DNA from: Clostridia bacterium
GTDB lineage: Bacteria > Bacillota > Clostridia > Christensenellales > CAG-1252
NCBI GenBank assembly: GCA_024685775.1
Contig: JAIKVL010000007.1
Coordinates: 15,627-79,626 of the forward strand
Length of the DNA: 64,000 nucleotides
Direction of reading: 5' to 3'
Positions 3,833 through 20,135 of the stretch are shown here, piece by piece. Under the pieces are notes generated by a model. It had not been told where the DNA came from. It ran no database searches and saw nothing but the letters and a program-made list of their open reading frames with translations. Each line of letters opens with the position of its first letter. Positions within the stretch are counted from its first letter, which is position 1. A program made the position numbers and the translations under genes.

Positions 3833-5185
3833 TCAGCGTAAAATCTGTTTGAGTTCGGCGACTTGCTTTACGGCGGTGACGACGAGGACTTTATCTCCGA
3901 GAAGGAGAGCCGTGTCGCCCGAGGGGAGGATGAATTCGCCGCCGCGGACGATCCCGCAGAGAAGGACGTTCGCTTTGATCTTCAATTCTTTGATGGGAAC
4001 GCCGATCTTCGGGAAATCTTCGCCGACGGTAAATTCGATGGCTTCGGCTTTGTCGTGGATGCGATAGAGCGCGTTGATGCCCGCGCCGTCTTCGACTTGG
4101 TGCGCGCGCACGAATCGGACCAAGTGATCCGCGATGACTTCGCGCGGGGAAAGGACGGTGTCCAGCCCGAGCTTCATGACCATTTTCGCAAGCGGGGTAG
4201 ACGTGATCTTCGTGACGACTTTCGCGCCGCCGAGCGAGGTCGCGTAAAGGGAGACGACGGCGTTTTCTTCGTCCACGCCCGTCAAGGTGACGATGGCGTC
4301 CGCTTCGCGAATGCCTTCTTCATCAAGGACGGCGGTATCCGTCCCGTCCGCGCAAATGACGGTGGCGTGGGACAGCGCTTCGTCCAAATAGCGGCAACGG
4401 TCCTCGTTGATTTCGAGGATCTTGACTTTGACGCCGTTTTCGAGAAGTTCTTTCGCGAGATAGTAAGAGATATTTCCGCCGCCGACGATCATGACGGATT
4501 TCGCGCGTTGCTTGAAGATCTTCATCTTTTTCGAAAAATCGAGAAGTCCCGTTTCTTCCGCGGCGACGTGGACCAGATCGCCTTCTTCGATCACGAAGTC
4601 GCCTTTGGGGATCACGACTTTTCCCGCGCGGGAGACGACGGCGAATAAGAGCGCGCCGCCCGATTTTTTCGCCGCGTCCATAACGGTCAATCCCGCGATG
4701 GGGCTGTTCGGCGCGATGCGGAATTCCGTCAGCGCGACTTTTCCGGATTCAAAAGAATCCGTCGAAATGGCGGAAGGAAACTTTAAGATCTGGGCGATCT
4801 CCATCGCCGTCCTGTGTTCGGGGTTGAAGATCATATCGACGCCGAGCTCGGACGTCAAACTTTCGAGGGATTTTAAGTACTCGGGATCGCGCGCTCTCGC
4901 GACGACGTGTTTCGCGCCCATCTTTTTCGCGAGGACGGAAGAAAGGATATTGAGCTCGTCGCGCAAGGTGCAGGCGAAAAAGCAATCGGCTTTATCGACT
5001 TCCGCTTCTTCGAGAACGCTTCTGTCGAGACAGTTGCCGACGACGCCTTTCGCGTCCGACTTATTGACGAGGTCTTCGACCGTGGCAAAATCTTCGTCCA
5101 CTACCGTTACGTCGTGATTTTCTTTAATAAGGCGGGTCGCGAGCGCTCCGCCGATCTTTCCGATACCAACGATGACGACTTTCAT
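3833..5185 (-). CDS. trkA: TrkA potassium uptake RCK subunit
   Basis: Two Rossmann motifs (IVGIGKIG, IVGGGNIS), two RCK_N/RCK_C pairs, 450 aa. Confidence 0.95.
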   Translation of the reverse strand: MKVVIVGIGKIGGALATRLIKENHDVTVVDEDFATVEDLVNKSDAKGVVGNCLDRSVLEEAEVDKADCFFACTLRDELNILSSVLAKKMGAKHVVARARDPEYLKSLESLTSELGVDMIFNPEHRTAMEIAQILKFPSAISTDSFESGKVALTEFRIAPNSPIAGLTVMDAAKKSGGALLFAVVSRAGKVVIPKGDFVIEEGDLVHVAAEETGLLDFSKKMKIFKQRAKSVMIVGGGNISYYLAKELLENGVKVKILEINEDRCRYLDEALSHATVICADGTDTAVLDEEGIREADAIVTLTGVDEENAVVSLYATSLGGAKVVTKITSTPLAKMVMKLGLDTVLSPREVIADHLVRFVRAHQVEDGAGINALYRIHDKAEAIEFTVGEDFPKIGVPIKELKIKANVLLCGIVRGGEFILPSGDTALLLGDKVLVVTAVKQVAELKQILR

Positions 5186-5194
5186 AATAGTTGT

Positions 5195-5223
5195 ATTTTA
5201 CAACAATTCCTTTTTCCTGTCAA
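5195..5223 (-). promoter_or_regulatory. sigma-A promoter of trkAH, near-leaderless
   Basis: TTGACA-17-TAAAAT on the minus strand; ATG only 9 nt past the -10 box; no SD. Confidence 0.75.
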
Positions 5224-5334
5224 TTACAGCGAAGCAATGACTTGAACGGGCGGCGAAAACTCCGTCTTTTCGCCCGTCTTCCTTAATATACGCGCGCGCG
5301 TTCGAGCGCATAAAACAAAATTTTGAAAAATCGT

Positions 5335-5363
5335 TTGACAGTTCGTGGGAATCGTGGTACGAT
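5335..5363 (+). promoter_or_regulatory. sigma-A promoter of T-box leader
   Basis: TTGACA-17-TACGAT with extended TG. Confidence 0.85.
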
Positions 5364-5388
5364 ACACTTACAACAGAATAATCATTCA

Positions 5389-5680
5389 AAGGCTGTGACG
5401 AAGTCCGTCTTGATCGAAAACTTCTTTCAGAGATCCGGTGGTTGGTGCGAACCGGTAGAAACGATCGTAGATTATCCCTTCCGAGCCGAAACCCGAAAGC
5501 TTTGTCGTGCTCCACGTCGGCGGCAGTAAAAAGAGCGAGTAGGCGTTTCCGTGACGCTGCGTTAATGCTAAGGGATTGATAGATTCCGAAAAAGAGAGGC
5601 GAATTTCGGTTCGCAATTTGAGTGGTACCGCGGGATAACACCCGTCTCAAAGCAGATGTTTTGAGGCGGGTTTTTGTTTT
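5389..5680 (+). ncRNA. T-box riboswitch, predicted Ile (AUC) specifier
   Basis: GA/K-turn (GGCTGTGACGAAG...CTTCCGAGCC), AGAGA box 5429, apical GGTGCGA loop, specifier loop GATT-ATC-C (ATC 5474-5476), T-box AGTGGTACCGCG 5621-5632, terminator CCCGTCTCAAA...TTTTGAGGCGGG plus T-run 5641-5680. Confidence 0.92.
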
Positions 5681-5775
5681 TCCTCGAAACGGACGCGCTA
5701 TCAGCGGTGCCGCAGCGCATGGATCGCTTAATAAAACGGGAAACCGATGCGCAAAACCAAAAGGAGGAAAAAAGT

Positions 5776-8043
5776 ATGACTACCAACCAAAACCGAAGGC
5801 TTTCGGAGATCGCAGAGCGCATCAAGGAGCTTCGTGAGATTTTCGGTTATTCCGAAGAGGAAATGAGCGAAAAGACCGAAGTCACGATCGCCGAGTACTC
5901 GATGTACGAGCAGGGGCAGCTCGATTTCCCGTTTACCTTTCTTCACAAATGCGCCCTTGCGTTCGGGATCTCGATCACCGATCTTCTCGAAGGTCAAAGC
6001 GCCCACCTTTCGAGCTATACCGTAACGAGAAAAGGAATGGGAATGGAGACCGCGAAAGAGCCCGGCATCGACATCCAAAATCTCGCGCCGCTTTTCCGCA
6101 GCAAGATCGCCGAACCCTATTACGTCCGCTATGAGTACGACCCCTCTCTTCAAGAGCTTCCGATCCACCTGACGAAGCATTCCGGGCAGGAATTCGACTT
6201 CGTTATGAGCGGGAAACTCAAAGTGCAGGTCGGCGAGAACGTCGAGTACCTCGAAGAGGGCGACAGCATTTATTACAACAGTTCCACTCCGCACGGAATG
6301 ATCGCCGTCGGCGGAAAGGATTGCGTCTTCCTCGCGGTCGTTCTCCCCGGCAAGGATCAGGAAGAGACCGTGATCCGCGACACGCTGAACCCGAATAAGA
6401 CGGTGTCCGAGCCGGGCGTCGCTGCCGATTTCATCACCGTAAAAGAAGATGATCGCGGCTATCCGCTGTCGATCGATTTCCATAACGACGACGCGTTCAA
6501 TTTCGCGTTCGACGTCGTGGATAAGATCGCGGATAAGGATCCGAATAAACTCGCGATGCTTCACGTCAGCCGCGATAAAGTCGAGCGCCGCCTGACCTTC
6601 CGCGATATGAAGAGGGCGTCCAACCGTTGCGTGAATTACTTCAAATCGCTCGGGATCAAGAGGGGTGATCGCGTCCTTCTCGTCCTGAAACGCCACTATC
6701 AATTCTGGTTTGCGATCCTCGCGCTTCATAAGCTCGGCGCGATCGCGATCCCCGCGACCTGCCAGCTTTTGTCTCACGATTTCGAGTATCGCTTCCAGGC
6801 GGCGGGCGTTTCCGCGATCGTCTGCACGGCGGACGGAGCCGTCGCGGAGCAAGTCGAGATCGCCGAAAAGACTTCGCCGACCTTGAAGATCAAAATGCTC
6901 GTCGGCGGCAGCCGCCCCGGTTGGCATGATTTCGACGAAGAATATCCGCTGTTCAGCACGCATTACGCGAGACCCAAGGACGCGCCCTGCGGCAACGATC
7001 CGATGCTGATGTTCTTCACTTCGGGGACGACCGGATATCCGAAGATCGCGGAGCATTCCTATAAGTACCCGCTCGGTCACTATATGACGGCGAAGTATTG
7101 GCACGGCGTCAGCGAAGGGGGATTGCATTTTACGATCTCCGACACCGGCTGGGGGAAGGCTCTTTGGGGCAAACTGTACGGGCAATGGCTTGCGGAAAGC
7201 GCGGTCTTTACTTACGATTTCGACCGCTTCGACGCGAGCGACATCCTGCCGATGTTCGCGAAGTATCATATCACGACGTTCTGCGCGCCGCCGACGATGC
7301 TCCGCATGATGATCAAACAAGACCTCTCGAAGTACGATTTTTCCTCGCTCCGTCATATGACGACGGCGGGCGAAGCTTTGAACCCCGAGGTCTACTATCA
7401 ATTCGAAAAAGCGACGGGATTGCAGACGCACGAGGGCTTCGGTCAAACCGAGCTGACATTGATGATCGCGAACCTGATCGGCGCGCCGCATAAAGTCGGT
7501 TCGATGGGTCGCCCCGTCCCCGGTTACGACGTTACGATCCTTTCTCCCGACGGGACTCCCGTTCCGGACGGCGAGACGGGCGAGATCTGCGTAAAAGTTT
7601 CGGAAAAAGTGCCGCGCGGCTTGTTCCTCGGCTACTATCTGAACGAGGAAAAGACCAAAGAAGTCTTGCACGACGGCTACTATCACACGGGCGACACCGC
7701 TTGGCGCGACGAGGACGGTTTCTACTGGTACGTCGGCAGGGTGGACGACGTCATCAAATCGTCGGGCTACCGTATCGGGCCGTTTGAGATCGAGAGCGTC
7801 ATCATGGAGCTTCCCTACGTCGTCGAATGCGGCGTTTCCGCCGCGCCGGACGAGGTCAGAGGGCAGGTCGTCAAAGCGAGCATCGTCCTGACGAAAGGCA
7901 CCGAGCCGACCGATGAACTCAAAAAGGAAATTCAGGATTACGTTAAGAAGCACACCGCTCCTTATAAGTATCCGAGGATCGTCGTCTTCCGCGACGAACT
8001 TCCCAAAACGATCAGCGGGAAAATACAAAGAAATAAACTATAA
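5776..8043 (+). CDS. XRE-HTH + cupin + acyl-CoA synthetase (AMP-binding) fusion, copy 1
   Basis: SD AAGGAGG 5761, ATG 5776 (ORF-track start 5674 lies in the terminator). N-terminal HTH and cupin (HSGQEF, YYNSSTPHGM); ANL motifs FTSGTTGYPK, YHTGD, SSGYRIGPFEIE, PKTISGK. Confidence 0.9.
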   Translation: MTTNQNRRLSEIAERIKELREIFGYSEEEMSEKTEVTIAEYSMYEQGQLDFPFTFLHKCALAFGISITDLLEGQSAHLSSYTVTRKGMGMETAKEPGIDIQNLAPLFRSKIAEPYYVRYEYDPSLQELPIHLTKHSGQEFDFVMSGKLKVQVGENVEYLEEGDSIYYNSSTPHGMIAVGGKDCVFLAVVLPGKDQEETVIRDTLNPNKTVSEPGVAADFITVKEDDRGYPLSIDFHNDDAFNFAFDVVDKIADKDPNKLAMLHVSRDKVERRLTFRDMKRASNRCVNYFKSLGIKRGDRVLLVLKRHYQFWFAILALHKLGAIAIPATCQLLSHDFEYRFQAAGVSAIVCTADGAVAEQVEIAEKTSPTLKIKMLVGGSRPGWHDFDEEYPLFSTHYARPKDAPCGNDPMLMFFTSGTTGYPKIAEHSYKYPLGHYMTAKYWHGVSEGGLHFTISDTGWGKALWGKLYGQWLAESAVFTYDFDRFDASDILPMFAKYHITTFCAPPTMLRMMIKQDLSKYDFSSLRHMTTAGEALNPEVYYQFEKATGLQTHEGFGQTELTLMIANLIGAPHKVGSMGRPVPGYDVTILSPDGTPVPDGETGEICVKVSEKVPRGLFLGYYLNEEKTKEVLHDGYYHTGDTAWRDEDGFYWYVGRVDDVIKSSGYRIGPFEIESVIMELPYVVECGVSAAPDEVRGQVVKASIVLTKGTEPTDELKKEIQDYVKKHTAPYKYPRIVVFRDELPKTISGKIQRNKL

Positions 8044-8060: not shown

Positions 8061-10349
8061 ATGGAAAAAACAGATTTGGACGGAAAGATCAAGGAGATGG
8101 CGGAAAGGATCCGCGAGCTGAGAGAGATCGAAGGGCTTTCGGTCTCCGATATGGCGGAGAAGACCGGCGTTTCCGAAGAAGAGTACGCGAAGTGCGAAAG
8201 AGGGGAAAGCGATTTGAACTTTACCTTCATCTATCGTTGCGCGAAAGCGTTCGGCGTCAACGTTACGGATATCATCGAGGGCTATTCTCCGATGCTGAAT
8301 TCCTACACCGTAACGCGCGTCGGATCGGGGCAAAAGATCGCTCAGGCGCACGGGATGACCTACTATAACCTTGCGTATGCTTTCCAAAACAGGATCGCCG
8401 AGCCGCTTTTCGTAAAAAGCGTTTACGATGCGGATAAAGCCGCGAAGGGAGAGATCGAGCTCACTTCTCACGCCGGGCAGGAATGCGACGTCGTGATCGA
8501 CGGCGCCCTGATGGTCCAAGTCGGCAGCCATACCGAGGTCCTCTACCCCGGCGACAGCATTTATTACGACAGCGGCACGCCGCACGGCATGATCGCGGTC
8601 GGCGGCAAGGACTGCACGTTTTACGCGATCGTCCTGAATCCGAGCGGTGAGCCCATTCCCGAGCTTACGCCCGTCAAAGCGATCGTGGACGAGAACGTCC
8701 AAAAGGGCGACGATAAGGATCGCGCCTATAAAAAGTTCATCGACGTCGTCGAGAACGAGCACGGAACGCCTACTTTCATTAAGTTTAAGAACACCGAAAA
8801 CTTCAATTTCGCGTTCGATATCGTGGACGAGGTCGCGAAGCGCGAACCCAACAAGATGTGTATGCTCCACGTCTCGAAGGATATGACCGAAAGGCGCTTC
8901 ACCTTCCTCGATATGAAAAAGGCGTCCAACCGTTGCGCGAACTATTTTAAGTCGCTCGGGATCAAGAAGGGAGATCGCGTCCTTCTCGTTATGAAGCGCC
9001 ACTATCAATTCTGGTTCGCGATGCTCGGACTCAATAAGCTCGGCGCGATCGCGATCCCGGGAACCAACCAGCTTTTGGAACACGATTTCGAGTATCGCTT
9101 CAATTCGGCGGAGATCGAAACCGTGATCTGCACCGCGGACGGTGATACCGCGCACCAAGTCGATCTCGCCGCGCCCCGTTGCCCCTCTCTCAAAAACAAA
9201 CTCATCGTAAACGGGACGAGGGAAGGTTGGCGCAATTTCGACGAGGAATATCCTCTGTACAGCACCCACTTCGAGCGCACGGAGTCTTCGCCGGGCGGCG
9301 ACGACACGATGCTGATGTTCTTTACGTCGGGAACGTCGGGATATCCGAAGATCGCGAGACATAACTACAAATATGCGCTCGGTCATTTCCATACCGCGAA
9401 ATATTGGCATAACGTCGATCCGGACGGCTTGCATTTTACGATCTCCGACACCGGTTGGGCAAAGGCGATGTGGGGCAAACTGTACGGGCAATGGCTTTGC
9501 GAAGCGGCGACCTTCGTTTACGACTTCGATCGCTTCGACGCGGCGACCATTCTTCCGATGTTCGCGAAGTATCATATCACGACGTTCTGCGCGCCGCCGA
9601 CGATGCTTCGCATGATGATCAAGCAGGATATTTCGAAATACGATTTTTCTTCCGTCCGTCATATGACGACGGCGGGCGAAGCGCTGAACCCCGAGGTCTA
9701 TCGCCAATTCGAGAAAGCGACGGGGCTTCAAATCCTCGAAGGTTTCGGCCAGTCCGAAAGCACGATGATCATCGGCAACCTCGTCGGCGCGCCGCATAAG
9801 ATCGGATCGATGGGTAAGCCCGCTCCGATCTACGACGTCGCTTTGATGGATTCCGAAGGAAAGATCGTCGGCGACGGCGAGACGGGCGAGATCGTCATCA
9901 GCCTGAAAAACGGTTCGCCGATCGGTCTCTTTACCGAGTACTACCGCGATCCCGAAAAGACCAAGGAAGCGCGCCACGACGGTTATTACCACACGGGCGA
10001 TCTCGCTTGGCGCGACGAAGACGGCTTCTACTGGTACGTCGGCAGAGCGGACGACGTCATCAAGTCGTCGGGTTACCGCATCGGACCGTTCGAGATCGAA
10101 AGCGTCATTATGGAGCTTCCCTACGTCTTGGAATGCGGCGTTTCCGCCGTTCCGGACGAGGTCAGAGGGCAGATCGTCAAAGCGAGCATCGTCCTGACGA
10201 AAGGGACCGAGCCGTCCGACGAACTCGTCAAGGAGATCCAAAATTACGTCAAGCAACATACCGCGCCGTATAAATATCCGAGGGTCGTCGTCTTCCGCGA
10301 CGAACTCCCGAAGACGACGAGCGGAAAGATCCAAAGAAACAAACTTTGA
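8061..10349 (+). CDS. XRE-HTH + cupin + acyl-CoA synthetase fusion, copy 2
   Basis: Same architecture and motifs as copy 1 (HAGQEC, FTSGTSGYPK, YHTGD, PKTTSGK); tandem paralog. Confidence 0.9.
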   Translation: MEKTDLDGKIKEMAERIRELREIEGLSVSDMAEKTGVSEEEYAKCERGESDLNFTFIYRCAKAFGVNVTDIIEGYSPMLNSYTVTRVGSGQKIAQAHGMTYYNLAYAFQNRIAEPLFVKSVYDADKAAKGEIELTSHAGQECDVVIDGALMVQVGSHTEVLYPGDSIYYDSGTPHGMIAVGGKDCTFYAIVLNPSGEPIPELTPVKAIVDENVQKGDDKDRAYKKFIDVVENEHGTPTFIKFKNTENFNFAFDIVDEVAKREPNKMCMLHVSKDMTERRFTFLDMKKASNRCANYFKSLGIKKGDRVLLVMKRHYQFWFAMLGLNKLGAIAIPGTNQLLEHDFEYRFNSAEIETVICTADGDTAHQVDLAAPRCPSLKNKLIVNGTREGWRNFDEEYPLYSTHFERTESSPGGDDTMLMFFTSGTSGYPKIARHNYKYALGHFHTAKYWHNVDPDGLHFTISDTGWAKAMWGKLYGQWLCEAATFVYDFDRFDAATILPMFAKYHITTFCAPPTMLRMMIKQDISKYDFSSVRHMTTAGEALNPEVYRQFEKATGLQILEGFGQSESTMIIGNLVGAPHKIGSMGKPAPIYDVALMDSEGKIVGDGETGEIVISLKNGSPIGLFTEYYRDPEKTKEARHDGYYHTGDLAWRDEDGFYWYVGRADDVIKSSGYRIGPFEIESVIMELPYVLECGVSAVPDEVRGQIVKASIVLTKGTEPSDELVKEIQNYVKQHTAPYKYPRVVVFRDELPKTTSGKIQRNKL

Positions 10350-10369: not shown

Positions 10370-10399
10370 TTGACAAGAAAACGTAATAAGTTTTATAAT
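10370..10399 (+). promoter_or_regulatory. internal sigma-A promoter upstream of P-loop/vor/ilvE genes
   Basis: TTGACA-18-TATAAT. Confidence 0.75.
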
Positions 10400-10440: not shown

Positions 10441-11115
10441 ATGGTCGAAAAGCGAATCACGATGATCTTGGGGCATTACGGAAGCGGAAAAACGAATATC
10501 GCCGTAAACCTCGCGCTCGCGCTGAAAAAGGCGGGGAAAAACGTCGCGATCGCCGACCTTGATATCGTCAACCCGTACTTCCGGACGAAGGACAGCCTTT
10601 CCGTCCTCGAAGAGGCGGGCATTCGCCTGATCTCCTCCGAGTACGCGAATACCAACCTCGACATTCCCGCTCTTCCGCAAGATATGTATGCGGTGACGGA
10701 CGATAAGAGTTTGACCTGCGTCCTCGATATCGGCGGCGATGATCGCGGCGCGCTCGTCCTCGGCAGGCTTCGCCCCGGCATCGTGGAAGAGGGAAATTAC
10801 GAGATGCTCCTCGTTATCAATAAATACCGTCCGCTGACCCAAGACGCGCCTTCGACCATCGAAGTCATGGCGGAGATCGAGGCGGCGGCGAATATGCGTT
10901 TTACGGGGATCATCAATAATTCCAACCTCGGCGCGGAGACCACTGCGGAAACCGTTTCGGATTCCCTCGAATATGCGCGCGAGATCTCGAAATTGACTTC
11001 GCTCCCGATCGTTATGACGACGGTGAAAGAAGAATTGATCAAAAAGCTGGAAGGAAAAGCGGAAAACCTCTTTCCGCTGACTTTACAGAAAAACTTTATA
11101 GAGAGTAAAATTTGA
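10441..11115 (+). CDS. P-loop NTPase (MinD/CobQ-like) of unknown function preceding the oxidoreductase genes
   Basis: Walker A GHYGSGKT, then DLDIVNPYFR and LDIGGDD; ATG 10441 preferred over GTG 10420. Confidence 0.8.
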   Translation: MVEKRITMILGHYGSGKTNIAVNLALALKKAGKNVAIADLDIVNPYFRTKDSLSVLEEAGIRLISSEYANTNLDIPALPQDMYAVTDDKSLTCVLDIGGDDRGALVLGRLRPGIVEEGNYEMLLVINKYRPLTQDAPSTIEVMAEIEAAANMRFTGIINNSNLGAETTAETVSDSLEYAREISKLTSLPIVMTTVKEELIKKLEGKAENLFPLTLQKNFIESKI

Positions 11116-11130
11116 AAAAGGAGATGGCTT

Positions 11131-11337
11131 ATGGCAAAACTGACTTTCAAAACCGACTACTGTAAGGGCTGCGGACTATGCGTGGACGTTTGCCCGAAAG
11201 ACGTTCTGCGTCTTGCTCCCGACAAGATTAACAAAAAAGGGCATCATCCCGTTGAAGCCGCGAAACCCGATCAATGCGTCGGATGCGGTTCCTGCGCGAT
11301 CATGTGCCCCGATTCTATTATAAAGGTGGAAAGGTGA
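11131..11337 (+). CDS. 2x[4Fe-4S] ferredoxin-like (delta) subunit of 2-oxoacid:ferredoxin oxidoreductase
   Basis: CKGCGLCVDVCP and CVGCGSCAIMCP. Confidence 0.92.
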   Translation: MAKLTFKTDYCKGCGLCVDVCPKDVLRLAPDKINKKGHHPVEAAKPDQCVGCGSCAIMCPDSIIKVER

Positions 11338-11341
11338 TAGT

Positions 11342-12409
11342 ATGGCAGATAAAGTTTTGATGAAAGGTAACGAAGCGATCGCCGAAGCGGCGATCAAAGC
11401 AGGTTGCAGACACTATTTCGGCTATCCCATCACGCCGCAGACCGAAGTCGCGGCTTATATGGCGAAGAGAATGCCGAAGATCGGCGGGACCTTCCTCCAA
11501 GCGGAGAGCGAGATCGCCGCGATCAATATGGTGTACGGCGTGGCGAGCGCGGGATTTCGCGCGATGACCTCTTCTTCCAGCCCGGGTATCTCCCTGAAAG
11601 GCGAGGGCATCAGTTACCTCGCGGGCGCGGATCTTCCGGCTCTCGTCGTTAACGTTCAGCGCGGCGGTCCGGGGCTCGGCGGTATCCAGCCCAGCCAATC
11701 CGATTATTTCCAAGCGACGCGCGGCGGCGGCCACGGCGACTATCATATGATCGTCCTCGCGCCTTCGTCCGTTCAGGAAATGGCGGAGCTTACCGTCAAA
11801 GGGTTCGAACTCGCGGATAAGTACAGAATGACCTCGATGATCCTTGCGGACGGAACGATGGGGCAGATGATGGAGCCCGTTGATCTGAATTTCACCGTCG
11901 CTCCCGCTCCCGAAAAACCGTGGGCGACGACGGGAACCAAGATGCAGCGCAAACACAATATCGTGAACTCCCTGTCCCTCGTCCCCGAAGAGCTTGAAAA
12001 GCTCAATATCGCGCGTTTCGAGCGTTACGACCTCGTCAAGAAGAACGAGACGATGTACGAAGAGTATATGATGGACGACGCGGATATCGCGATCGCCGCG
12101 TTCGGTATCGCCGCGAGAGTCTCGAAGAACGCCGTCAAAGAGGCGAGAAAGAGAGGGATCAAGGCGGGTCTTATTCGCCCGATCACTTTGTGGCCGTTCC
12201 CCGACGCACCTTTCAAGAAGGCGGCGGAGCACGTCAAAGAGATCATCTCGGTGGAACTTTCGATGGGACAAATGATCGAGGACGTTCGCCTCGCTTCGGA
12301 ATGCAAAGTCAAAGTTTCGCTGTGTAACCGCGTCGGAGGTATGATTCCTTCGCCCGAGCAGGTTTTGGACGCGATCGTTAAAGCAAGTAAGAACGGAGGT
12401 AAGGAATAA
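11342..12409 (+). CDS. vorB: 2-oxoacid:ferredoxin oxidoreductase alpha subunit (VorB-like, 3-methyl-2-oxobutanoate dehydrogenase)
   Basis: KGNEAIAEAAI, YFGYPITPQ, QAESE, TSSSSPG, QRGGPGLG motifs. Confidence 0.88.
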   Translation: MADKVLMKGNEAIAEAAIKAGCRHYFGYPITPQTEVAAYMAKRMPKIGGTFLQAESEIAAINMVYGVASAGFRAMTSSSSPGISLKGEGISYLAGADLPALVVNVQRGGPGLGGIQPSQSDYFQATRGGGHGDYHMIVLAPSSVQEMAELTVKGFELADKYRMTSMILADGTMGQMMEPVDLNFTVAPAPEKPWATTGTKMQRKHNIVNSLSLVPEELEKLNIARFERYDLVKKNETMYEEYMMDDADIAIAAFGIAARVSKNAVKEARKRGIKAGLIRPITLWPFPDAPFKKAAEHVKEIISVELSMGQMIEDVRLASECKVKVSLCNRVGGMIPSPEQVLDAIVKASKNGGKE

Positions 12410-13164
12410 TGATAGTTTACGATAAACCGCACGCGCTTTTGGACGTGCCTCTCCATTATTGCCCCGGCTGCACGCACGGTATTGTGCATAAACTGGTGGC
12501 GGAAGTTATAGACGAACTCGGCATCGAAGGCGAAACGATCGGTATCGCTCCCGTCGGTTGCTCGGTTATGGCGTACGATTATTTCGCCTGCGATATGATC
12601 GAAGCGGCGCACGGAAGAGCGCCCGCGGTCGCGACGGGCGTCAAGAGGGCGGATCCCTCCAAAGTCGTCTTTACCTACCAAGGCGACGGTGACCTCGCTT
12701 CCATCGGTATGGCGGAAACCGTGCACGCCGCGGCGAGAAACGAGAACATCACCGTTATCTTTATCAATAACGCGATCTACGGAATGACCGGTGGTCAAAT
12801 GGCGCCGACCTCCCTCGTCGGGCAGGTCACGCAGACATCTCCTTACGGCAGAGATCCCAAACTTTGCGGTTACCCGATCAAGGTTTGCGAGCTTCTTTCC
12901 GAGCTCGAAGGTCCGGAATATTTGGAGCGCGTCACCGTAAACAGCATTCCCCATATCCGCGCCGCGAAGAAGGCGATCAAGAAAGCTTTCCAAAACCAGA
13001 TCGAAGGGAAGGGCTTCTCTTTGATCGAAGTCGTCTCTTCCTGCCCGACGAACTGGGGTATGACGCCGCAAAACGCGTTGAAGTGGATCGAAGAAAAAAT
13101 GCTTCCGTACTATCCGCTCGGCGTGTATAAAGACAGAAGCGCAAGCGAGGAGGACAAGAAATAA
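12409..13164 (+). CDS. 2-oxoacid:ferredoxin oxidoreductase beta (TPP-binding) subunit
   Basis: YCPGCTHG, GCS, TPP motif GDGD...INN, GMTGGQMAPT, CP. Confidence 0.92.
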   Translation: MIVYDKPHALLDVPLHYCPGCTHGIVHKLVAEVIDELGIEGETIGIAPVGCSVMAYDYFACDMIEAAHGRAPAVATGVKRADPSKVVFTYQGDGDLASIGMAETVHAAARNENITVIFINNAIYGMTGGQMAPTSLVGQVTQTSPYGRDPKLCGYPIKVCELLSELEGPEYLERVTVNSIPHIRAAKKAIKKAFQNQIEGKGFSLIEVVSSCPTNWGMTPQNALKWIEEKMLPYYPLGVYKDRSASEEDKK

Positions 13165-13697
13165 TGAGCACGAGACAATTTCTTTTTTCCGGTTTCGGCG
13201 GACAAGGTATCCTTTTTGCGGGAAAATTCATCGCGTATAAAGGCTTGATCGAAGATAAAGAAGTCAGCTGGCTCCCGTCCTACGGCCCCGAAATGCGCGG
13301 CGGCACGGCGAGTTGCAGCGTCATCGTTTCGGATGAACCCGTCGGTTCCCCGATCGTCAACACGCCCGACGTCCTCGTCGCGATGAACCTTCCTTCTCTC
13401 GACCGTTTCGAGAGCAAGGTCGCGCCCGGCGGCATCATCTTTTTGGATTCGTCCCTGATCGAGCGCAAAGTCGAAAGGACGGACGTTACCGTCTTCGCTC
13501 TTCCCGCCACGCAAATGGCGTCCGATAACGGATTCCCGACTTTGGCGAATATGATCATCGTCGGCAAGATCCTCAAAGAGCTCGGGGAGTACAGCGACGA
13601 AAGTTTGAAAGCCGCGCTTGCGAAAGTCATCAGCGCGAAGCACGCCGATATGATGGAAGTGAACCGTAAGGCGATCGACCTCGGCGCGAACTATTAA
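13164..13697 (+). CDS. 2-oxoacid:ferredoxin oxidoreductase gamma subunit
   Basis: SGFGGQG, PSYGPEMRGG, NMIIVG. Confidence 0.92.
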   Translation: MSTRQFLFSGFGGQGILFAGKFIAYKGLIEDKEVSWLPSYGPEMRGGTASCSVIVSDEPVGSPIVNTPDVLVAMNLPSLDRFESKVAPGGIIFLDSSLIERKVERTDVTVFALPATQMASDNGFPTLANMIIVGKILKELGEYSDESLKAALAKVISAKHADMMEVNRKAIDLGANY

Positions 13698-13707
13698 GGA
13701 GAGAATT

Positions 13708-14772
13708 ATGGAAATCAAATACGTTAAAACGCAAAATCCCAAGGCGATGCCCCCGGAGGACACGCTCGGGTTCGGGAAATATTTTACCGATCATATGCTT
13801 ATGATGGATTGGTCTTCGGATCAAGGATGGCACGATCTCCGCATCGTCCCGTTCGCGAATCTTTCGATCCATCCCGCCTGCACCGCGCTTCATTACGGCT
13901 CGGAGATCTTCGAGGGCTTGAAGGCGTACAGGAGAGCGGACGGCGAAGTCCAACTCTTCCGTCCGATGGAGAATATCCGCAGAATGAATAACTCCGCCGA
14001 AAGGCTTTGCCTCCCCGAGATCCCCGAAGATCTCGCGCTCAAAGCGCTTCTCGCGTTCGTTTCTTCCGAAAAGGCTTGGACGCCGCATAAGAAGGGAACT
14101 TCTTTGTACCTCCGCCCCTTTATGTTCGGAAACGACGAGACCCTCGGCGTGCACGCCGTCCATCACGCGACCTTCGTGATCATCGCGTCTCCGGTCGGCA
14201 GCTACTACAAAGAGGGCATCAACCCCGTCAAGATCATGATCGAATCCGAAGACGTTCGCGCGGTGCGCGGCGGCACGGGCTACGCGAAGTGCGGCGGTAA
14301 CTACGCGGCTTCCAACCGCGCCGGAAAGAAAGCCGAAGATAAGGGCTATTCGCAGGTCCTTTGGCTGGACGGCGTCGAAAGGAAGTACATCGAGGAAGTC
14401 GGCGCGATGAACGTTATGTTCAAGATTGCGGGTAAGATCGTTACCCCGAAACTCACCGGCTCGATCCTTCCGGGTATCACGAGGAAGAGCTGTATCGAAG
14501 TCTTGAAGAAGGCGGGCTATACCGTCGAGGAAAGGCTTCTCTCCGTCGAAGAGCTCGGCAACGCGCTTAAAAACGGGACGCTCGAAGAGGCGTGGGGTTG
14601 CGGAACGGCAGCCGTCGTCTCCCCGATCGGCGAACTCTGCTATAAGGACGTGAAGTACACGATCAACGGCGGAAAGATCGGCGAAGTAACGCAGAAATTA
14701 TACGACACGTTGACCGGCATCCAATGGGGTGAGATCGAAGACACCTTCGGCTGGACGACCGTCGTAAAATAA
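13708..14772 (+). CDS. ilvE: branched-chain amino acid aminotransferase
   Basis: LHYGSEIFEGLKAY, LYLRP, PLP lysine in AKCGGNY, EEVGAMN, ILPGITR. Confidence 0.95.
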   Translation: MEIKYVKTQNPKAMPPEDTLGFGKYFTDHMLMMDWSSDQGWHDLRIVPFANLSIHPACTALHYGSEIFEGLKAYRRADGEVQLFRPMENIRRMNNSAERLCLPEIPEDLALKALLAFVSSEKAWTPHKKGTSLYLRPFMFGNDETLGVHAVHHATFVIIASPVGSYYKEGINPVKIMIESEDVRAVRGGTGYAKCGGNYAASNRAGKKAEDKGYSQVLWLDGVERKYIEEVGAMNVMFKIAGKIVTPKLTGSILPGITRKSCIEVLKKAGYTVEERLLSVEELGNALKNGTLEEAWGCGTAAVVSPIGELCYKDVKYTINGGKIGEVTQKLYDTLTGIQWGEIEDTFGWTTVVK

Positions 14773-14800: not shown

Positions 14801-16174
14801 ATGAATCAAGTGAAAATAACGGCAAGGCTTTGCGGAAATGAGAACGAACTGACGTTCAAAGAGAAATTCGAGATCGCGCGCTTGCTGGAAAAGCTATGCG
14901 TGGACGTTATCGAATTCCCCGCTCTATCGGGAAATAAAGAAGACGCCTTGCTAATTCGTACTTGCGCGTCCTTTATCAAAAACAGCGTTCTTTCCGTCCC
15001 CGTGCTCTCCGCGGCGCAGGCGGACGAAGCGGCTGCGTGCCTTTCGGGCGCGAATAACGCCGCATTGCGCGTCGAGCTCAGCGTCTCTCCCGTCGGGATG
15101 GAATATTTCCACCACAGAAAGGCGCCGAAGATGCTCGAACTCATCAAAGAACTCGTTTCTTACGCCGCGTCCAAGGCGAAGAAAGTGTATTTCTGCGCGC
15201 TCGACGCGACGCGCGCCGAAGAAGAATTCTTGAAGAGCGCGCTTCTCGCGGCGGAAGAAGCCGGCGCGAAAGCCGTCTATCTTTCGGACGACGCGGGCGA
15301 AATGCTCCCGGACGAGTTCGCGCTTTTTGCGGAAAAATTCGGAAAGGTCGTCGGCGTTCCGATCGGCGTCGCCGTCTCGAATAAGAGCGGATTTGCGCTT
15401 TCTTCCGCGGTGCTTGCGGTCAGAAAAGGCGTTAAAGCCGTCAAAACCGTGCTTTCGGGCGACGGGATCTCTCTTCAAGCGTTCGCGAACTGCATCAAAA
15501 ACAGCGGCGCGAGAAACGGGATCGCGCTCGGCGTTACCTATACCGAACTCAATCGTATTATCGCGCGCGTAAACGGCATTTCGGACGGCGGCGAGGGCTC
15601 GGCTCCCTCCAAAGCCGAACTCGGCGACGCGCCTTTCGTCAATTTGGACGAAAACGATAATAAGGAAGCCGTCACGGAAGCGGCGGCGAAACTCGGCTAC
15701 GATCTTTCAAACGAAGATCAGACGAAAGTGTACGAGGAATTCCTGCGCGTCGCGAATAAGAAAAAGAGAGTCGGCGCGAAAGAACTCGACGCGATCATCG
15801 CTTCGGCGGCGCTTCAAGTCCCCGCGACGTACAAGCTCGTCAGCTATGTGATCAATAACGGCAACATCATTCATTCTTCCGCGCAGATCGCCTTGCAAAA
15901 GGGCAATGAGACGCTCGCGGGCATCTCGATGGGTAACGGACCGATCGACGCGGCGTTCCTTTGCTTGGAAAGCATTTTGGGGACGCATTACGAGCTCGAC
16001 GATTTCGAGATCCAGTCGGTGACCGAAGGAAAAGAGGCGATGGGCTCCGCGCTCGTCAAACTCCGCAAAGACGGGAAACTCTATTCCGGCAAGGGTATTT
16101 CGACCGATATCATCGGGGCTTCGATTCGCGCCTATCTCAGCGCGGCGAATAAGATCGCATACGAGGAGGAATAA
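14801..16174 (+). CDS. LeuA (2-isopropylmalate synthase)-like protein with degenerate catalytic domain and intact C-terminal allosteric domain
   Basis: EKFEIARLLEKLCVDVIE matches the LeuA N-terminus but DTTLRDGxQ is absent; HxHND reads AVSNK; C-terminal GNGPIDAAF...GKGISTDIIGASIRAYLSA. Confidence 0.85.
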   Translation: MNQVKITARLCGNENELTFKEKFEIARLLEKLCVDVIEFPALSGNKEDALLIRTCASFIKNSVLSVPVLSAAQADEAAACLSGANNAALRVELSVSPVGMEYFHHRKAPKMLELIKELVSYAASKAKKVYFCALDATRAEEEFLKSALLAAEEAGAKAVYLSDDAGEMLPDEFALFAEKFGKVVGVPIGVAVSNKSGFALSSAVLAVRKGVKAVKTVLSGDGISLQAFANCIKNSGARNGIALGVTYTELNRIIARVNGISDGGEGSAPSKAELGDAPFVNLDENDNKEAVTEAAAKLGYDLSNEDQTKVYEEFLRVANKKKRVGAKELDAIIASAALQVPATYKLVSYVINNGNIIHSSAQIALQKGNETLAGISMGNGPIDAAFLCLESILGTHYELDDFEIQSVTEGKEAMGSALVKLRKDGKLYSGKGISTDIIGASIRAYLSAANKIAYEEE

Positions 16175-16176
16175 CG

Positions 16177-18705
16177 ATGAAACTTTCATTTTCCACGAAG
16201 GGTTGGCATCACTCCTCCTTCGATGATTTTTGCGACTACGCCTGCGATCTCGGATTCGACGGCGTGGAACTTCATAACATCCATAATAAACTTTTTACCG
16301 ATAAAGACGGCGCGTTTCACGATTACGCCGCGGCGGCGACGCTTCGCAAACTGTACGAGAAGAAATTGTCGCTTCCCTGCATCGACGCGATCTGTGACGT
16401 TGCGACGGTAAACGGAAGGGAAGAAGCGATCGAAGAGATCGGGAAATGCGCGGAGATCGCGCAGAATCTTCATATCCCCTACGTCCGCGTTCGCGCCGAA
16501 GCGCACGAGGATGAGGCGCAAGCGGACGAGCGCGTTCGCTCGTTGATCGCGGAAGTCCTTCCGATCGCCGAAAAAGCGGGCGTGACCATCGTTATGGAAA
16601 CCGCGGGATTGTACGTCAGCAGCGCGCGTCTTCGCGATCTTTTGCAAAGCTTTGCCTGTGATTCTTTCGCCGCGCTTTGGAATTTCTCCGCCGCTTACTT
16701 CGGTTCGGGCGAGGCTCCCGAAAAAGTCATCGAGAACCTCGGCGCCTACGTTAAGCACGTTCACTTGAACGACGCGAAAAAGACCCGAGACGGCGCGATC
16801 GAGTACTCTCTCCTCGGAGAGGGCGATCTCCCCGTCAAGGATATGATGGCGGCGCTTTCTTCCGTCAATTACGACGGATTTATTTCCCTCGTCTGGCATC
16901 CGGATTGGTGCGGCGAACTCAAAGACATCGAGATCATTTTCGCGCAATTCGTCGGCTTTATGAAGCAATTCGGCGACACGGCGAAAGGAGAGAAGTCTTT
17001 ATACTGGAATCGCAGACATACCGGTAAATTCGTCTGGAAGAAGGAAATCTTGATCGACGAGACTTTCCCCGCCGTCCTCGACAGAATGTGCGAAGAGTTC
17101 CCCGATCAGTACGCATTTAAGTACACGACCCTCGATTACACGAGGACCTACGTCGAGTTCCGCAGAGACGTGGACGAATTCGCCCGCACCTTGATCGCGC
17201 TCGGCGTCAAAGCCGGATCGCACGTCGCCGTTTGGGCGTCCAACGTCCCACAATGGTATATCGCGTTTTGGGCGACCGTTAAAATCGGCGCCGTCCTCGT
17301 GACGGTCAACACGGCGTACAAGATCGCCGAGGTCGAATACCTTTTGAAGCAGTCCGACACGCACACGTTGATCATGACCGAAGGTTCGAAAGATTGTCAT
17401 TACGGCAAGATCATCGCGCAGCTTTGCCCCGAGCTTTCGGAAAAGAAACCTTCCGATCCGTTGCACGCAAAGCGTCTTCCTTTCCTCAGAAACGTCATTA
17501 CCGTCGGCTATCGTCAGCCCGGTTGCTTAACTTGGAGTCAAGCGATCAAACTCTCCGAAAAGGTCAAGCAGGAAGAGGTCTTGCGTATGGCGGCGGCGGT
17601 CAATAAACACGACGTCTGCAATATGCAGTACACGTCCGGAACGACGGGCTTCCCGAAGGGCGTCATGCTGACGCACTACAATATCGTAAATAACGGCAAG
17701 TCGATCGGCGACCGTATGGATCTTTCGACGGCGGACAGAATGATGATCCAAGTCCCGATGTTCCATTGCTTCGGAATGGTCCTCGCGATGACCGCGACGA
17801 TGACGCACGGCGGCACGCTTTTGCCCCTGCCGTACTTCTCGCCGAAACCCGCGCTCGCTTGCATCAATAACGAGCATATCACTGCGTTCCACGGCGTCCC
17901 GACGATGTTTATCGCGCTTCTCGAACACCCCGATTTCCCGAAGACGGACTTCTCGTATATGAGGACGGGCATTATGGCGGGTTCGCCTTGCCCGATTTCC
18001 GCGATGCAACAGGTCGTCGAGAAAATGAATATGAAAGAGATCACGATCGTCTACGGGCAGACCGAGGCTTCCCCGGGTTGCACGATGAGTTCGACGGACG
18101 ATCCGATCGAGATCCGCGTCGGGACGGTCGGCAGACCGCTTCCCGAAATCGAGTGCCGCATCGTAAATCCCGAGACGGGCGAAGATTGCCCCGACGAAGT
18201 TACGGGCGAATTCTTGGCGCGCGGCTATAACATTATGAAGGGATACTATAAGATGCCGAAAGCGACCGCGCAGGCGATCGATAAGGACGGCTGGCTCCAC
18301 ACGGGCGACCTCGCTTGCAGGACGAAAGAAGGGAACTTCCGCATTACGGGCAGGCTCAAAGATATGATCATTCGCGGCGGCGAAAACATCTATCCGAAAG
18401 AGATCGAGGAATTCATTTACACCCATCCGAAGGTCTCGGACGTTCAAGTCATCGGCGTCCCGGACGAGTCCTACGGCGAAGAGATCATGGCGTGTATCAT
18501 CCTGAAAGAGGGTGAGACGATGACCGCGGACGAGATGAAAGCCTATATCGGCGCGAATATGGCGCGCCATAAGGTCCCGAAGTACGTCGATTTCGTTACG
18601 TCCTTCCCGATGAACGCCGCGGGCAAGATCTTGAAGTATAAAATGCGCGAGGACGCGATCGCGAAACTCGGGCTTCAAAAAGCGAACAGCATCGAAACGG
18701 CTTGA
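16177..18705 (+). CDS. xylose isomerase-like (AP_endonuc_2) TIM barrel fused to acyl-CoA synthetase
   Basis: N-terminal GFDGVEL...VMET...HVHLND...GEG; C-terminal YTSGTTGFPKG, HTGDL, GRLKDMIIRGGENIYP, AGKILK. Confidence 0.88.
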   Translation: MKLSFSTKGWHHSSFDDFCDYACDLGFDGVELHNIHNKLFTDKDGAFHDYAAAATLRKLYEKKLSLPCIDAICDVATVNGREEAIEEIGKCAEIAQNLHIPYVRVRAEAHEDEAQADERVRSLIAEVLPIAEKAGVTIVMETAGLYVSSARLRDLLQSFACDSFAALWNFSAAYFGSGEAPEKVIENLGAYVKHVHLNDAKKTRDGAIEYSLLGEGDLPVKDMMAALSSVNYDGFISLVWHPDWCGELKDIEIIFAQFVGFMKQFGDTAKGEKSLYWNRRHTGKFVWKKEILIDETFPAVLDRMCEEFPDQYAFKYTTLDYTRTYVEFRRDVDEFARTLIALGVKAGSHVAVWASNVPQWYIAFWATVKIGAVLVTVNTAYKIAEVEYLLKQSDTHTLIMTEGSKDCHYGKIIAQLCPELSEKKPSDPLHAKRLPFLRNVITVGYRQPGCLTWSQAIKLSEKVKQEEVLRMAAAVNKHDVCNMQYTSGTTGFPKGVMLTHYNIVNNGKSIGDRMDLSTADRMMIQVPMFHCFGMVLAMTATMTHGGTLLPLPYFSPKPALACINNEHITAFHGVPTMFIALLEHPDFPKTDFSYMRTGIMAGSPCPISAMQQVVEKMNMKEITIVYGQTEASPGCTMSSTDDPIEIRVGTVGRPLPEIECRIVNPETGEDCPDEVTGEFLARGYNIMKGYYKMPKATAQAIDKDGWLHTGDLACRTKEGNFRITGRLKDMIIRGGENIYPKEIEEFIYTHPKVSDVQVIGVPDESYGEEIMACIILKEGETMTADEMKAYIGANMARHKVPKYVDFVTSFPMNAAGKILKYKMREDAIAKLGLQKANSIETA

Positions 18706-18724: not shown

Positions 18725-18758
18725 TTGCCGCTCTCTTTTCGGAGTGCGGCAACTTTTT
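18725..18758 (+). terminator. probable terminator after the TIM-ACS gene
   Basis: TTGCCGC...GCGGCAA stem then CTTTTT. Confidence 0.6.
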
Positions 18759-18778: not shown

Positions 18779-20059
18779 ATGGGGATCATCATCCTTTCCG
18801 TTTGCACGGTCGCGCTGTTTATTCTCTCGGTGCTTTTGAAGCCCGAGATCAAAATCGGAAAAATCAAGTTCGATAGCTTTTTTCTGTTCCCGCTCGTCGG
18901 CGCGATTCTTTGTCTGTCGCTCGGATATCTCCCGCTTTCCGATCTTATGTCCGCGCTGTTTTCGAAAGGGGAGATGAACCCTTTGAAGATCCTCGTTTTG
19001 TTCTTCTCGATGACCGTTATGAGCCTGTATTTGGACGAAGCGGGGTTTTTCCGTTACCTCGCGGCGAAGAGCGCGGGGTCGTCCGGGAAGCTCGGGTTTT
19101 TCATCCGAATCTACGCGCTCGTCTCCATTCTGACGATCTTTACTTCGAACGACGTCGTGATCTTGACCTTTACTCCGTTTATTTGCGCCTACGCGAAACG
19201 GCTTCGAATTTCGCCGTTCCCGTATCTTATGATGGAATTCGTCGCGGCGAACACTTGGAGTATGCTTTTCATCGTCGGCAATCCGACGAATATTTATATC
19301 GCCGCCTCGCTCGGCACGGATTTTTTCCATTACTTGAAGATTATGTTTCTCCCCGCGATCGCCGCGGGCGGCGTTTCTTTTCTCGCGCTGTTGCTTTTGT
19401 TCAAAAACGAATTGAAGGAGCGCGCCGAACTCGCGCCGATCGAAGAGAAGATCGAACTCGATAAACCCCTCGTCGCGCTCTCTTTGTCCGCTCTCGGGTT
19501 ATGCGTTCTCGCGCTCGTCGTCAGCTCCTTCCTGCCAAACGTTCAAATGTGGTATATTTCGCTCGGATTCGCGCTGCTCTTGACGGTGGTCGTCGCCGTC
19601 GTCCGCCTCGCAAGAAAGGAAAAAGCGAAGTATTTGTTCGCCGCGTATAAAAGGCTTCCGTATGCGATCGCGCCTTTTCTCGTGTCGATGTTTATCCTCG
19701 TCCTTGCGCTGAAAGAGCAAGGAGTAACGGCTAGAATCGCTTCTTTGATCCCGAATGAAGGGGAGATCTTTTCCTACGGCGGCATCTCCTATCTCGCCGC
19801 GAACCTTTTGAATAACATCCCGATGAGCGTCCTTTTCGCGGAGATCTGCCCGACTGCGGGCGCGAAGTTCGCCGCGATCGTTTCTTCGAATCTCGGCGCG
19901 CTCCTAACCCCCGTCGGCGCGCTCGCCGGCATTATGTTTACCAAGATCACCGCGACATACGGCGAAGAGATCAAGGTTTATAAATTCGTCCTTTGCGGCG
20001 CGGCGGTCTCCGTTCCCGCGCTTGCGGCGTCGCTCGGCGCGCTTCTCGTGACGCTGTAA
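18779..20059 (+). CDS. ArsB/NhaD (ion transporter superfamily) anion permease
   Basis: About 11-12 hydrophobic segments; SNDVVIL, VGNPTNI, NNIP, NLGALLTPVGALAGI. Confidence 0.85.
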   Translation: MGIIILSVCTVALFILSVLLKPEIKIGKIKFDSFFLFPLVGAILCLSLGYLPLSDLMSALFSKGEMNPLKILVLFFSMTVMSLYLDEAGFFRYLAAKSAGSSGKLGFFIRIYALVSILTIFTSNDVVILTFTPFICAYAKRLRISPFPYLMMEFVAANTWSMLFIVGNPTNIYIAASLGTDFFHYLKIMFLPAIAAGGVSFLALLLLFKNELKERAELAPIEEKIELDKPLVALSLSALGLCVLALVVSSFLPNVQMWYISLGFALLLTVVVAVVRLARKEKAKYLFAAYKRLPYAIAPFLVSMFILVLALKEQGVTARIASLIPNEGEIFSYGGISYLAANLLNNIPMSVLFAEICPTAGAKFAAIVSSNLGALLTPVGALAGIMFTKITATYGEEIKVYKFVLCGAAVSVPALAASLGALLVTL

Positions 20060-20109: not shown

Positions 20110-20135
20110 TTTCCGACTTTGTCGGAAATTTTTTT
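20110..20135 (+). terminator. Rho-independent terminator
   Basis: TTTCCGAC-ttt-GTCGGAAA plus T7. Confidence 0.65.

Follow-up and report, generated by a model that had tools for sequence, protein, structure and literature searches.

We analyzed a 64,000-nucleotide stretch of DNA, hereafter called the window, from a Clostridia bacterium (contig JAIKVL010000007.1), in which a T-box leader lies upstream of genes for two acyl-coenzyme A (acyl-CoA) synthetases, or ligases. These two genes, ACS1 and ACS2, are followed by genes encoding a P-loop nucleoside triphosphatase (NTPase), the four subunits of a 2-oxoacid:ferredoxin oxidoreductase (VorDABC), the branched-chain amino acid aminotransferase IlvE, a LeuA-like protein and a third ligase that is fused to a TIM (triosephosphate isomerase) barrel. 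With considerable confidence, we read the leader as a class-I, transcription-terminating T-box that is specific for tRNA-Ile(GAU), that heads a cluster most likely converting branched acids to amino acids, and that represents a derived state with a single sensor. As an RNA, the leader is a standard T-box, for which we claim no new riboswitch mechanism; what is unusual and informative is its regulon.

The T-box leader and its specifier

The Rfam covariance model for T-boxes (RF00230) matches positions 5386-5652 of the forward strand over the full model (model positions 1-219), with a score of 97.2 bits (E-value 4e-20) against a curated gathering score of 93. This is the sole Rfam match across the 64-kb window. 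Within Stem I, the specifier loop is closed by the helix GAAG 5400-5403/CUUC 5478-5481, the AG bulge is AGAGA (5429-5433) and the distal loop is GGUUGGUGCGA (5440-5450). When 38 orthologous Stem I sequences were analyzed with RNAalifold, 12 of 18 pairs exhibited compensatory changes, and the ATC columns were unpaired and invariant.

The antiterminator contains a 7-nucleotide bulge, UGGUACC (5623-5629), which begins with the UGGU (5623-5626) expected to contact a tRNA, and its helix A2 has a G5630-U5645 wobble at the base. The 3' arm of the antiterminator (5641-5651) doubles as the 5' arm of the terminator, such that these structures, which overlap at 5640-5651, are mutually exclusive. Because the free energy is -22.2 kcal/mol for the terminator and -10.8 kcal/mol for the antiterminator, termination is the default state. 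The element is a genuine T-box of ordinary architecture. An earlier reading of this DNA made from the letters alone (the sequence-only reading) had reported all of the T-box landmarks, and both these and their coordinates proved correct, as judged from the full-length Rfam match above the cut-off and from direct reading of the sequence. A sigma-70-like promoter precedes the leader, and the same promoter is found ~280 nucleotides ahead of the T-box motif in loci of the same genus.

On the 3' side of the specifier loop, the sequence is GAUUAUCC (5470-5477), in which AUC stands one base ahead of the closing stem. We took the codon from the Rfam register, in which it occupies the three positions preceding the last base of the loop; this register was calibrated on the tryptophan T-box found in the same genome (UGG followed by G, with the bulge UGGC). 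The codon frame one base before the helix is also the one to which TBDB gives priority, and AUC is the preferred isoleucine specifier in that database (PMC7778990). The genome has a gene for tRNA-Ile(GAU) (C13:89305-89381), whose anticodon pairs perfectly with the AUC at 5474-5476 and whose A73-CCA end is complementary to UGGU. More generally, the discriminator base in this genome is A73 in all genes for tRNA-Ile, tRNA-Val, tRNA-Leu and tRNA-Tyr, C73 in tRNA-His, and G73 in all four CCA-ending tRNA-Ser genes.

Using ACS1 as a query, we collected 80 orthologous loci from metagenome-assembled genomes of rumen and gut Oscillospirales (goat, sheep and cattle gut). A T-box motif is present at most 400 nucleotides upstream in 73 of these loci. 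All 67 of the orthologous leaders that could be parsed have ATC one base ahead of the closing helix, and the bases preceding this triplet vary (CCC, CCT, CTT, TCG and others). ATC is retained even upstream of orthologues with only 48-56% protein identity. Within the window's genus, both ATC and UGGU are retained in the 11 readable leaders; in a 12th, the specifier region is masked.

Given the priority frame, the invariance in 67 of 67 leaders, the pairing with tRNA-Ile(GAU) and the match of A73 to UGGU, we assign the specifier to isoleucine. The sequence-only reading had placed ATC at this position, and had proposed that UGGU would pair with an ACCA end as in tRNA-Ile. The first of these claims is borne out by the Rfam register and by the orthologues, and the second by A73 in the genome's own tRNA-Ile(GAU). 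It had also raised the prospect that an alignment might assign a UCC or AUU register; ours assigns neither, as AUC is invariant, and an Infernal-type prediction with the Rfam covariance model gives AUC as the codon. The triplet AUU (5471-5473) is an isoleucine codon too, and we rejected it as the specifier, as it is not conserved among the orthologous leaders.

In the mechanism that we propose, transcription would start a few bases past the -10 box of the leader promoter. With charged tRNA-Ile, the terminator would form, and transcription would halt ahead of ACS1. With uncharged tRNA-Ile, the anticodon would pair with AUC and the free ACCA end with UGGU, and both of these contacts would stabilize the antiterminator, such that RNA polymerase would proceed into ACS1 and ACS2. 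No terminator lies between these two genes and the remaining cluster, into which transcription could therefore read through. We infer this response of the leader to tRNA-Ile from its sequence.

Contigs from metatranscriptome assemblies of the rumen and gut cover positions 5386-5792 (with 2 differences), 5449-5771 and 5612-5836, and extend from the leader past the terminator into ACS1. Positions 5000-5367 are uncovered in all four runs. These extents are consistent with transcription that begins directly downstream of the -10 box and passes the terminator in the animal. As a separate observation, one contig in run X1 (693 nucleotides, depth 42) joins T-box sequence at 5634 to the ACS2 start at 8253. 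This contig most likely derives from a relative with a T-box directly before ACS2, and not from a splice in the window organism.

Genes of the cluster and their predicted pathway

The features of the locus are collected in Table 1. ACS1 and ACS2 are paralogous, and are the genes that would be gated most directly by the T-box. By a wide margin, the best match of ACS1 in the PDB is 3ETC (601 bits), the structure of MacsMa from Methanosarcina acetivorans, an enzyme that favours 2-methylbutyrate as its substrate (PMC10455477). The best NCBIfam family for both ACS1 and ACS2 is MbcS, with scores of 420-441 bits against an equivalog cut-off of 850; the MbcS of Staphylococcus aureus can activate isobutyrate as well as 2-methylbutyrate (PMC10026030). 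In their ligase domains, ACS1 and ACS2 are therefore closely related to two reference enzymes that both activate 2-methylbutyrate. However, ACS1 and ACS2 differ from these enzymes in their additional N-terminal domains, and they lie below the MbcS equivalog cut-off. The additional domains are an XRE-type helix-turn-helix (HTH) and a cupin, which occur at the N-termini of both gated ligases (5776-6480 and 8061-8800) and which may regulate or sense a ligand as a second layer, at the level of the protein.

Table 1. Features of the T-box locus, with positions numbered from the first nucleotide of the window
Feature	Position	Strand	Description and basis
Leader promoter	5335-5363	+	TTGACA 5335-5340, 17-nt spacer, TG-extended -10 box TACGAT 5358-5363; sigma-70-like, 10/12 matches
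T-box leader	5386-5652	+	Stem I, Stem II, IIA/B, Stem III, antiterminator; Rfam RF00230
Stem I	5391-5487	+	K-turn (kink-turn) UGUGAC/CGA; sequence reading and Rfam alignment
Specifier	5474-5476	+	AUC (Ile), then C5477; Rfam register
Antiterminator	5617-5651	+	Helix A1 5617-5622/5646-5651; helix A2 5630-5634/5641-5645
Intrinsic terminator	5640-5681	+	14-pair hairpin 5640-5671, then TTTTTGTTTTT (U-tract 5672-5681)
ACS1	5776-8043	+	HTH(XRE)-cupin-AMP-forming acyl-CoA synthetase, first T-box-gated gene; Pfam HTH_19, Cupin_2, AMP-binding, AMP-binding_C
ACS2	8061-10349	+	Paralogous HTH-cupin-acyl-CoA synthetase, 17 nt past ACS1; Pfam, NCBIfam
Internal promoter	10370-10399	+	Consensus TTGACA-18-TATAAT in the ACS2/P-loop gap; 12/12 matches
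P-loop NTPase	10441-11115	+	CbiA/ParA/MinD-like; likely start ATG 10441 behind AAGGGG ribosome-binding site
VorD	11131-11337	+	Subunit of four-subunit 2-oxoacid:ferredoxin oxidoreductase
VorA	11342-12409	+	As for VorD
VorB	12409-13164	+	As for VorD
VorC	13164-13697	+	As for VorD
IlvE	13708-14772	+	Branched-chain amino acid aminotransferase; NF009897 481.7 bits (cut-off 307), TIGR01123 395.6 bits (cut-off 250)
LeuA-like protein	14801-16174	+	Below every NCBIfam cut-off
TIM barrel-acyl-CoA synthetase fusion	16177-18705	+	Xylose-isomerase-like TIM barrel, third ligase; PRK12583-like, 682 bits, below cut-off
Terminator-like hairpin	18725-18758	+	TTGCCGC/GCGGCAA, then CTTTTT; sequence reading (14-nt loop escaped the terminator scanner)

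The oxidoreductase has all of its alpha, beta, gamma and delta subunits, in which the Pfam domains POR_N, PFOR_II, TPP_enzyme_C and POR are found. Its alpha subunit scores 539 bits against the NCBIfam family named 'VorB' (NF005507, cut-off 399), and its delta subunit has two CxxCxxCxxxCP motifs. Nearly all of the related loci have the P-loop gene in the same place, between ACS2 and VorD; its product may assist in maturing the iron-sulfur clusters of Vor or act as their carrier. The LeuA-like protein has kept the allosteric LeuA_dimer domain and is missing the N-terminal DTTLRDGEQ-type motif; it is a putative pseudoenzyme. Its gene is always paired with the TIM-ligase gene, and in relatives the pair lies behind a leucine T-box. 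The hairpin after the TIM-ligase gene probably marks the end of the operon. Directly after the operon is a gene for a CitMHS/ArsB-family anion permease (18779-20059), which has its own terminator (20110-20128). We considered this permease as a conserved importer of acids, and dropped it because no homologue occurs in ~110 related loci.

Searches for ilvB (the large subunit of acetolactate synthase), ilvC, ilvD, leuB and BrnQ found none of these in the 1.7-Mb, 97%-complete genome, and the same searches matched in positive-control genomes. It has long been known that anaerobes of the rumen and gut need isobutyrate, 2-methylbutyrate and isovalerate, which serve them as precursors of valine, isoleucine and leucine. 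The cluster most probably encodes such a route, leading from branched short-chain fatty acids in the rumen to branched-chain amino acids. In this pathway, each acid would be converted to its acyl-CoA by an AMP-forming ligase, for which we propose ACS1 for 2-methylbutyrate, ACS2 for isobutyrate and the TIM-fused ligase for isovalerate. VorDABC would then carboxylate the acyl-CoA reductively to the 2-oxoacid, using reduced ferredoxin, and IlvE would transaminate the 2-oxoacid to the amino acid. We infer both the substrates of the ligases and the direction of the Vor reaction.

The sequence-only reading had described an isoleucine T-box ahead of acyl-CoA synthetases, which is supported by the AUC specifier and by ACS1 and ACS2 downstream, and had called this target atypical. 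The latter description holds for gene content. It does not hold for function: because Vor and IlvE are present, and ilvBCD and leuB are absent, the T-box would still control the supply of an amino acid. Reductive carboxylation of branched acids to isoleucine, valine and leucine in rumen bacteria has been mentioned previously (PMC7356843), and the chemistry predicted for the cluster, as well as its habitat, is the same. However, the classical work on the rumen is physiological and names no genes, whereas both genes and tRNA-based control are predicted here from sequence alone.

T-boxes and ligases in related loci

The cluster is conserved in ~80 Oscillospirales loci, in which the ligase genes are syntenic with those for VorDABC and IlvE. 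Most of the related loci have two T-boxes beyond the isoleucine one, namely a valine T-box between ACS1 and ACS2 and a leucine T-box before the LeuA-like/TIM-ligase pair. The valine T-box has its own promoter and lies ahead of ACS2 as well as Vor and IlvE. Counted on alignment columns, its specifier is GUA in 54 of 61 cases and GUC in the other 7, and a purine usually follows; one example scores 80 bits in Rfam. The specifier of the leucine T-box, counted in the same way, is CUC in 24 cases and CUG in 6, and four examples have Rfam scores of 105-117 bits. An arrangement of one T-box per ligase (isoleucine, valine or leucine) is common among the relatives, and is probably the ancestral design.

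A tree of 133 ligases, 70 of them behind isoleucine T-boxes and 50 behind valine T-boxes, separates the two groups with a single change. The window's ACS1 falls in the clade of ligases behind isoleucine T-boxes. ACS2 of the window, which has no T-box of its own, falls in a 53-member clade with 100% support that holds all 50 of the ligases behind valine T-boxes. This partition of specifiers among clades therefore labels three families of ligases with isoleucine, valine and leucine. These labels provide the strongest argument for 2-methylbutyrate, isobutyrate and isovalerate as the predicted ligase substrates; for the TIM-fused ligase, isovalerate is proposed because a leucine T-box precedes it in relatives. 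The earlier suggestion that 2-methylbutyrate is the substrate of at least one ligase is strengthened, as a prediction, by the kinship with MacsMa, by the separate valine and leucine T-boxes, and by the clade partition.

The window departs from this arrangement. The gaps between ACS1 and ACS2 and between IlvE and the LeuA-like gene are 17 and 28 nucleotides long, and therefore leave no room for a T-box in either place. No remnants of a second or third T-box were detected in the 64-kb window, which has a single Rfam match. In the genomes of the same genus where both ligase genes are whole on one contig, ACS1 and ACS2 are likewise adjacent, with no room for a T-box, and a single T-box is seen in each of two same-genus loci, G008 and G001, that were read over a longer stretch. 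These comparisons indicate that the valine and leucine T-boxes were lost in the window's genus, and that only the isoleucine T-box was kept.

A promoter with a perfect consensus lies downstream of ACS2 in the window and in each of the four loci of its genus that were examined (G001, G008, G010 and G011). It is absent from the relatives with a valine T-box. The gap between ACS2 and the P-loop gene is 53-111 nucleotides in the window's genus, as against mostly 2-35 nucleotides in those relatives. These observations suggest that the promoter replaced the lost T-box module. For comparison, the clusters with three T-boxes in other Oscillospirales (L024, L047 and L056) have orthologues of ACS1, ACS2, the P-loop gene, VorDABC, IlvE, the LeuA-like gene and the TIM-ligase gene, and share with the window the isoleucine T-box before ACS1; they differ in that the window's genus is without the valine and leucine T-boxes, and has gained the consensus promoter after ACS2. 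In the window, the isoleucine T-box would gate both HTH-cupin ligases directly, and the module of Vor, IlvE and leucine-related genes would be reachable by read-through. Given the predicted activity of the internal promoter, this module is probably also transcribed independently of the T-box.

Alternative explanations and significance

Several points weigh against our interpretation. A conserved purine normally stacks 3' of the specifier in T-boxes (PMC7583486), and in the window C5477 stands in place of this purine. However, of the 67 orthologous leaders, 33 have A at the corresponding base, 32 have C and 2 have G; because half of the T-box orthologues also carry C, C5477 is evidently tolerated. 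It is a deviation at one stacking base, and the architecture is unaffected. Owing to the internal promoter, control by the T-box may extend little beyond the two ligases. The metatranscriptome data consist of assembled contigs that carry no information on strand or ends, and might include DNA. The acyl-CoAs made by the cluster may also feed the synthesis of branched fatty acids. Finally, two loci break the pairing of T-boxes with ligases. In L072, ACS1 and ACS2 follow the leucine T-box module without an isoleucine T-box (the order is leucine T-box, LeuA-like, TIM-ligase, ACS1, ACS2, valine T-box, IlvE, P-loop gene, Vor). In G016 (locus L116, G016:C10:69500-88500), all of the cluster genes are contiguous and lack a T-box, and a search upstream of this cluster found none down to an E-value of 0.1. 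The pairing of T-boxes and ligases is thus strong, but not absolute.

It might be asked whether the specifier should be read in a different register, as UCC/UCN (serine), UAU (tyrosine) or CAU (histidine). Directly against the closing stem, the window has UCC and its relatives have UCA, UCC or UCG, all of which are serine codons, and UAU overlaps AUC in the window, with tRNA-Tyr having a suitable A73. However, the discriminator bases of the four CCA-ending tRNA-Ser genes (G73) and of tRNA-His (C73) both mismatch UGGU, and the tyrosine codon is not conserved, as the position reads CAU in most relatives. A serine register leaves the invariant A of AUC unexplained, the frame of Rfam and TBDB puts the codon one base before the helix, and the downstream genes include IlvE and Vor. 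We therefore find these other registers hardly credible. A different concern is that the isoleucine T-box no longer regulates, and is a decaying relic headed for the same loss as the valine and leucine T-boxes. Two of the three T-boxes of the relatives are indeed missing in the window, a related genus (G016) has the cluster without any T-box, and the conserved purine is replaced by C. Yet all motifs of the element are intact and its score exceeds the Rfam cut-off, none of the 11 readable leaders in the genus has lost ATC or UGGU, and half of the family likewise has C in place of the purine. Moreover, a strong terminator without antitermination would block expression of the ligases, yet transcripts cross this terminator. 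We judge decay of the T-box to be very unlikely.

The remaining alternatives accept a functional isoleucine T-box and concern what the cluster does. Like MbcS in Staphylococcus aureus, the ligases might mainly supply branched acyl-CoA primers for the synthesis of membrane fatty acids, with low charging of tRNA-Ile signaling a shortage of isoleucine-derived 2-methylbutyryl-CoA. In favour of this idea, ACS1 and ACS2 match MbcS best among the NCBIfam families, and MbcS provides FabH with both 2-methylbutyryl-CoA and isobutyryl-CoA (PMC10026030). However, the scores of 420-441 bits are far under the MbcS cut-off of 850, and a role in priming leaves unexplained why the ligase genes are syntenic with those for VorDABC and IlvE in ~80 loci. 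The separate valine and leucine T-boxes of the relatives fit the supply of amino acids instead, and a genome without ilvBCD and leuB needs another source of branched-chain amino acids. We consider fatty-acid priming unlikely as the main role; it is compatible with amino-acid biosynthesis, and the two roles may coexist. Alternatively, the cluster might be catabolic, such that IlvE and Vor would produce acyl-CoAs by oxidizing branched-chain amino acids, a flux that the T-box would merely tune. IlvE is reversible, as are Vor-type enzymes, which work oxidatively in amino-acid fermenters. Nevertheless, a T-box turns its genes on when tRNA is uncharged and the amino acid is scarce, which is the wrong sign for catabolism. 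Furthermore, AMP-forming ligases push acids to acyl-CoAs and conserve no energy in the reverse direction, and both the canonical pathway for branched-chain amino acids and the BrnQ transporter are absent. A catabolic role is therefore extremely unlikely.

Our preferred interpretation, an isoleucine T-box controlling amino-acid supply from branched acids, can be compared with known T-boxes. Isoleucine T-boxes such as the leaders of ileS in Firmicutes have the same AUC specifier, the same match of UGGU with A73, and the same architecture of Stems I, II and III with an antiterminator and a terminator. In contrast to these, the leader in the window gates acyl-CoA synthetases and has a pyrimidine after its specifier. 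In the window's genome, ileS itself has no T-box, as the whole genome has three T-box matches. In Bacillus subtilis, the ilv-leu operon has a transcriptional leucine (CUC) T-box that controls genes for the biosynthesis of branched-chain amino acids. Both that leader and the one in the window would thus exert transcriptional control of such biosynthesis, but the window's specifier is for isoleucine, and its predicted route consists of acid activation, reductive carboxylation and transamination, and not of the ilvBCD/leuABCD pathway, which the genome lacks.

The second T-box of the genome (locus L001, C6:5092-5340, reverse strand) has a UGG (tryptophan) specifier and a UGGC bulge, and lies ahead of a gene for a TrpB2-like PALP enzyme of 478 amino acids; this would be a further case of T-box control over precursor salvage. 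The third (locus L003, C35:34856-35012, reverse strand) is short, scores 50.8 bits and has a UGGA bulge matching U73 of tRNA-Thr; it starts about a dozen bases past a cluster of tRNA-Gly, tRNA-Cys and tRNA-Leu genes, and precedes thrS-infC-rplT. In the literature that we covered, which is incomplete, we found no paper linking a T-box to genes for 2-methylbutyrate, ferredoxin oxidoreductase or acyl-CoA synthetase, and no relevant paper on branched-chain volatile fatty acids together with ferredoxin oxidoreductase. Such genes are unmentioned by Wels 2008.

The losses and gains described above admit a more speculative idea, which we offer tentatively and regard as somewhat less probable than not. 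The charging of tRNA-Ile alone would serve as a proxy for the branched-chain amino acids, gating the activation of both 2-methylbutyrate and isobutyrate, and the new promoter would free Vor, IlvE and the leucine module from this control. Together with L072, where the leucine T-box is kept, and G016, where none is kept, the window might then form part of a natural series of rewirings of one pathway.

In the relatives, the specifiers assign a single amino acid to each of the three families of ligases, and thereby predict the acids that these ligases use. The ligase genes lie beside those for Vor and IlvE in genomes without the canonical pathway. By offering candidates at the level of genes, these labels could turn an old physiological observation into specific experiments on enzymes, labelling and regulation. 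The subject is relevant to the supplementation of ruminant diets with branched-chain volatile fatty acids. To this picture, the window adds a derived regulatory state, in which a single isoleucine sensor is combined with a new promoter.

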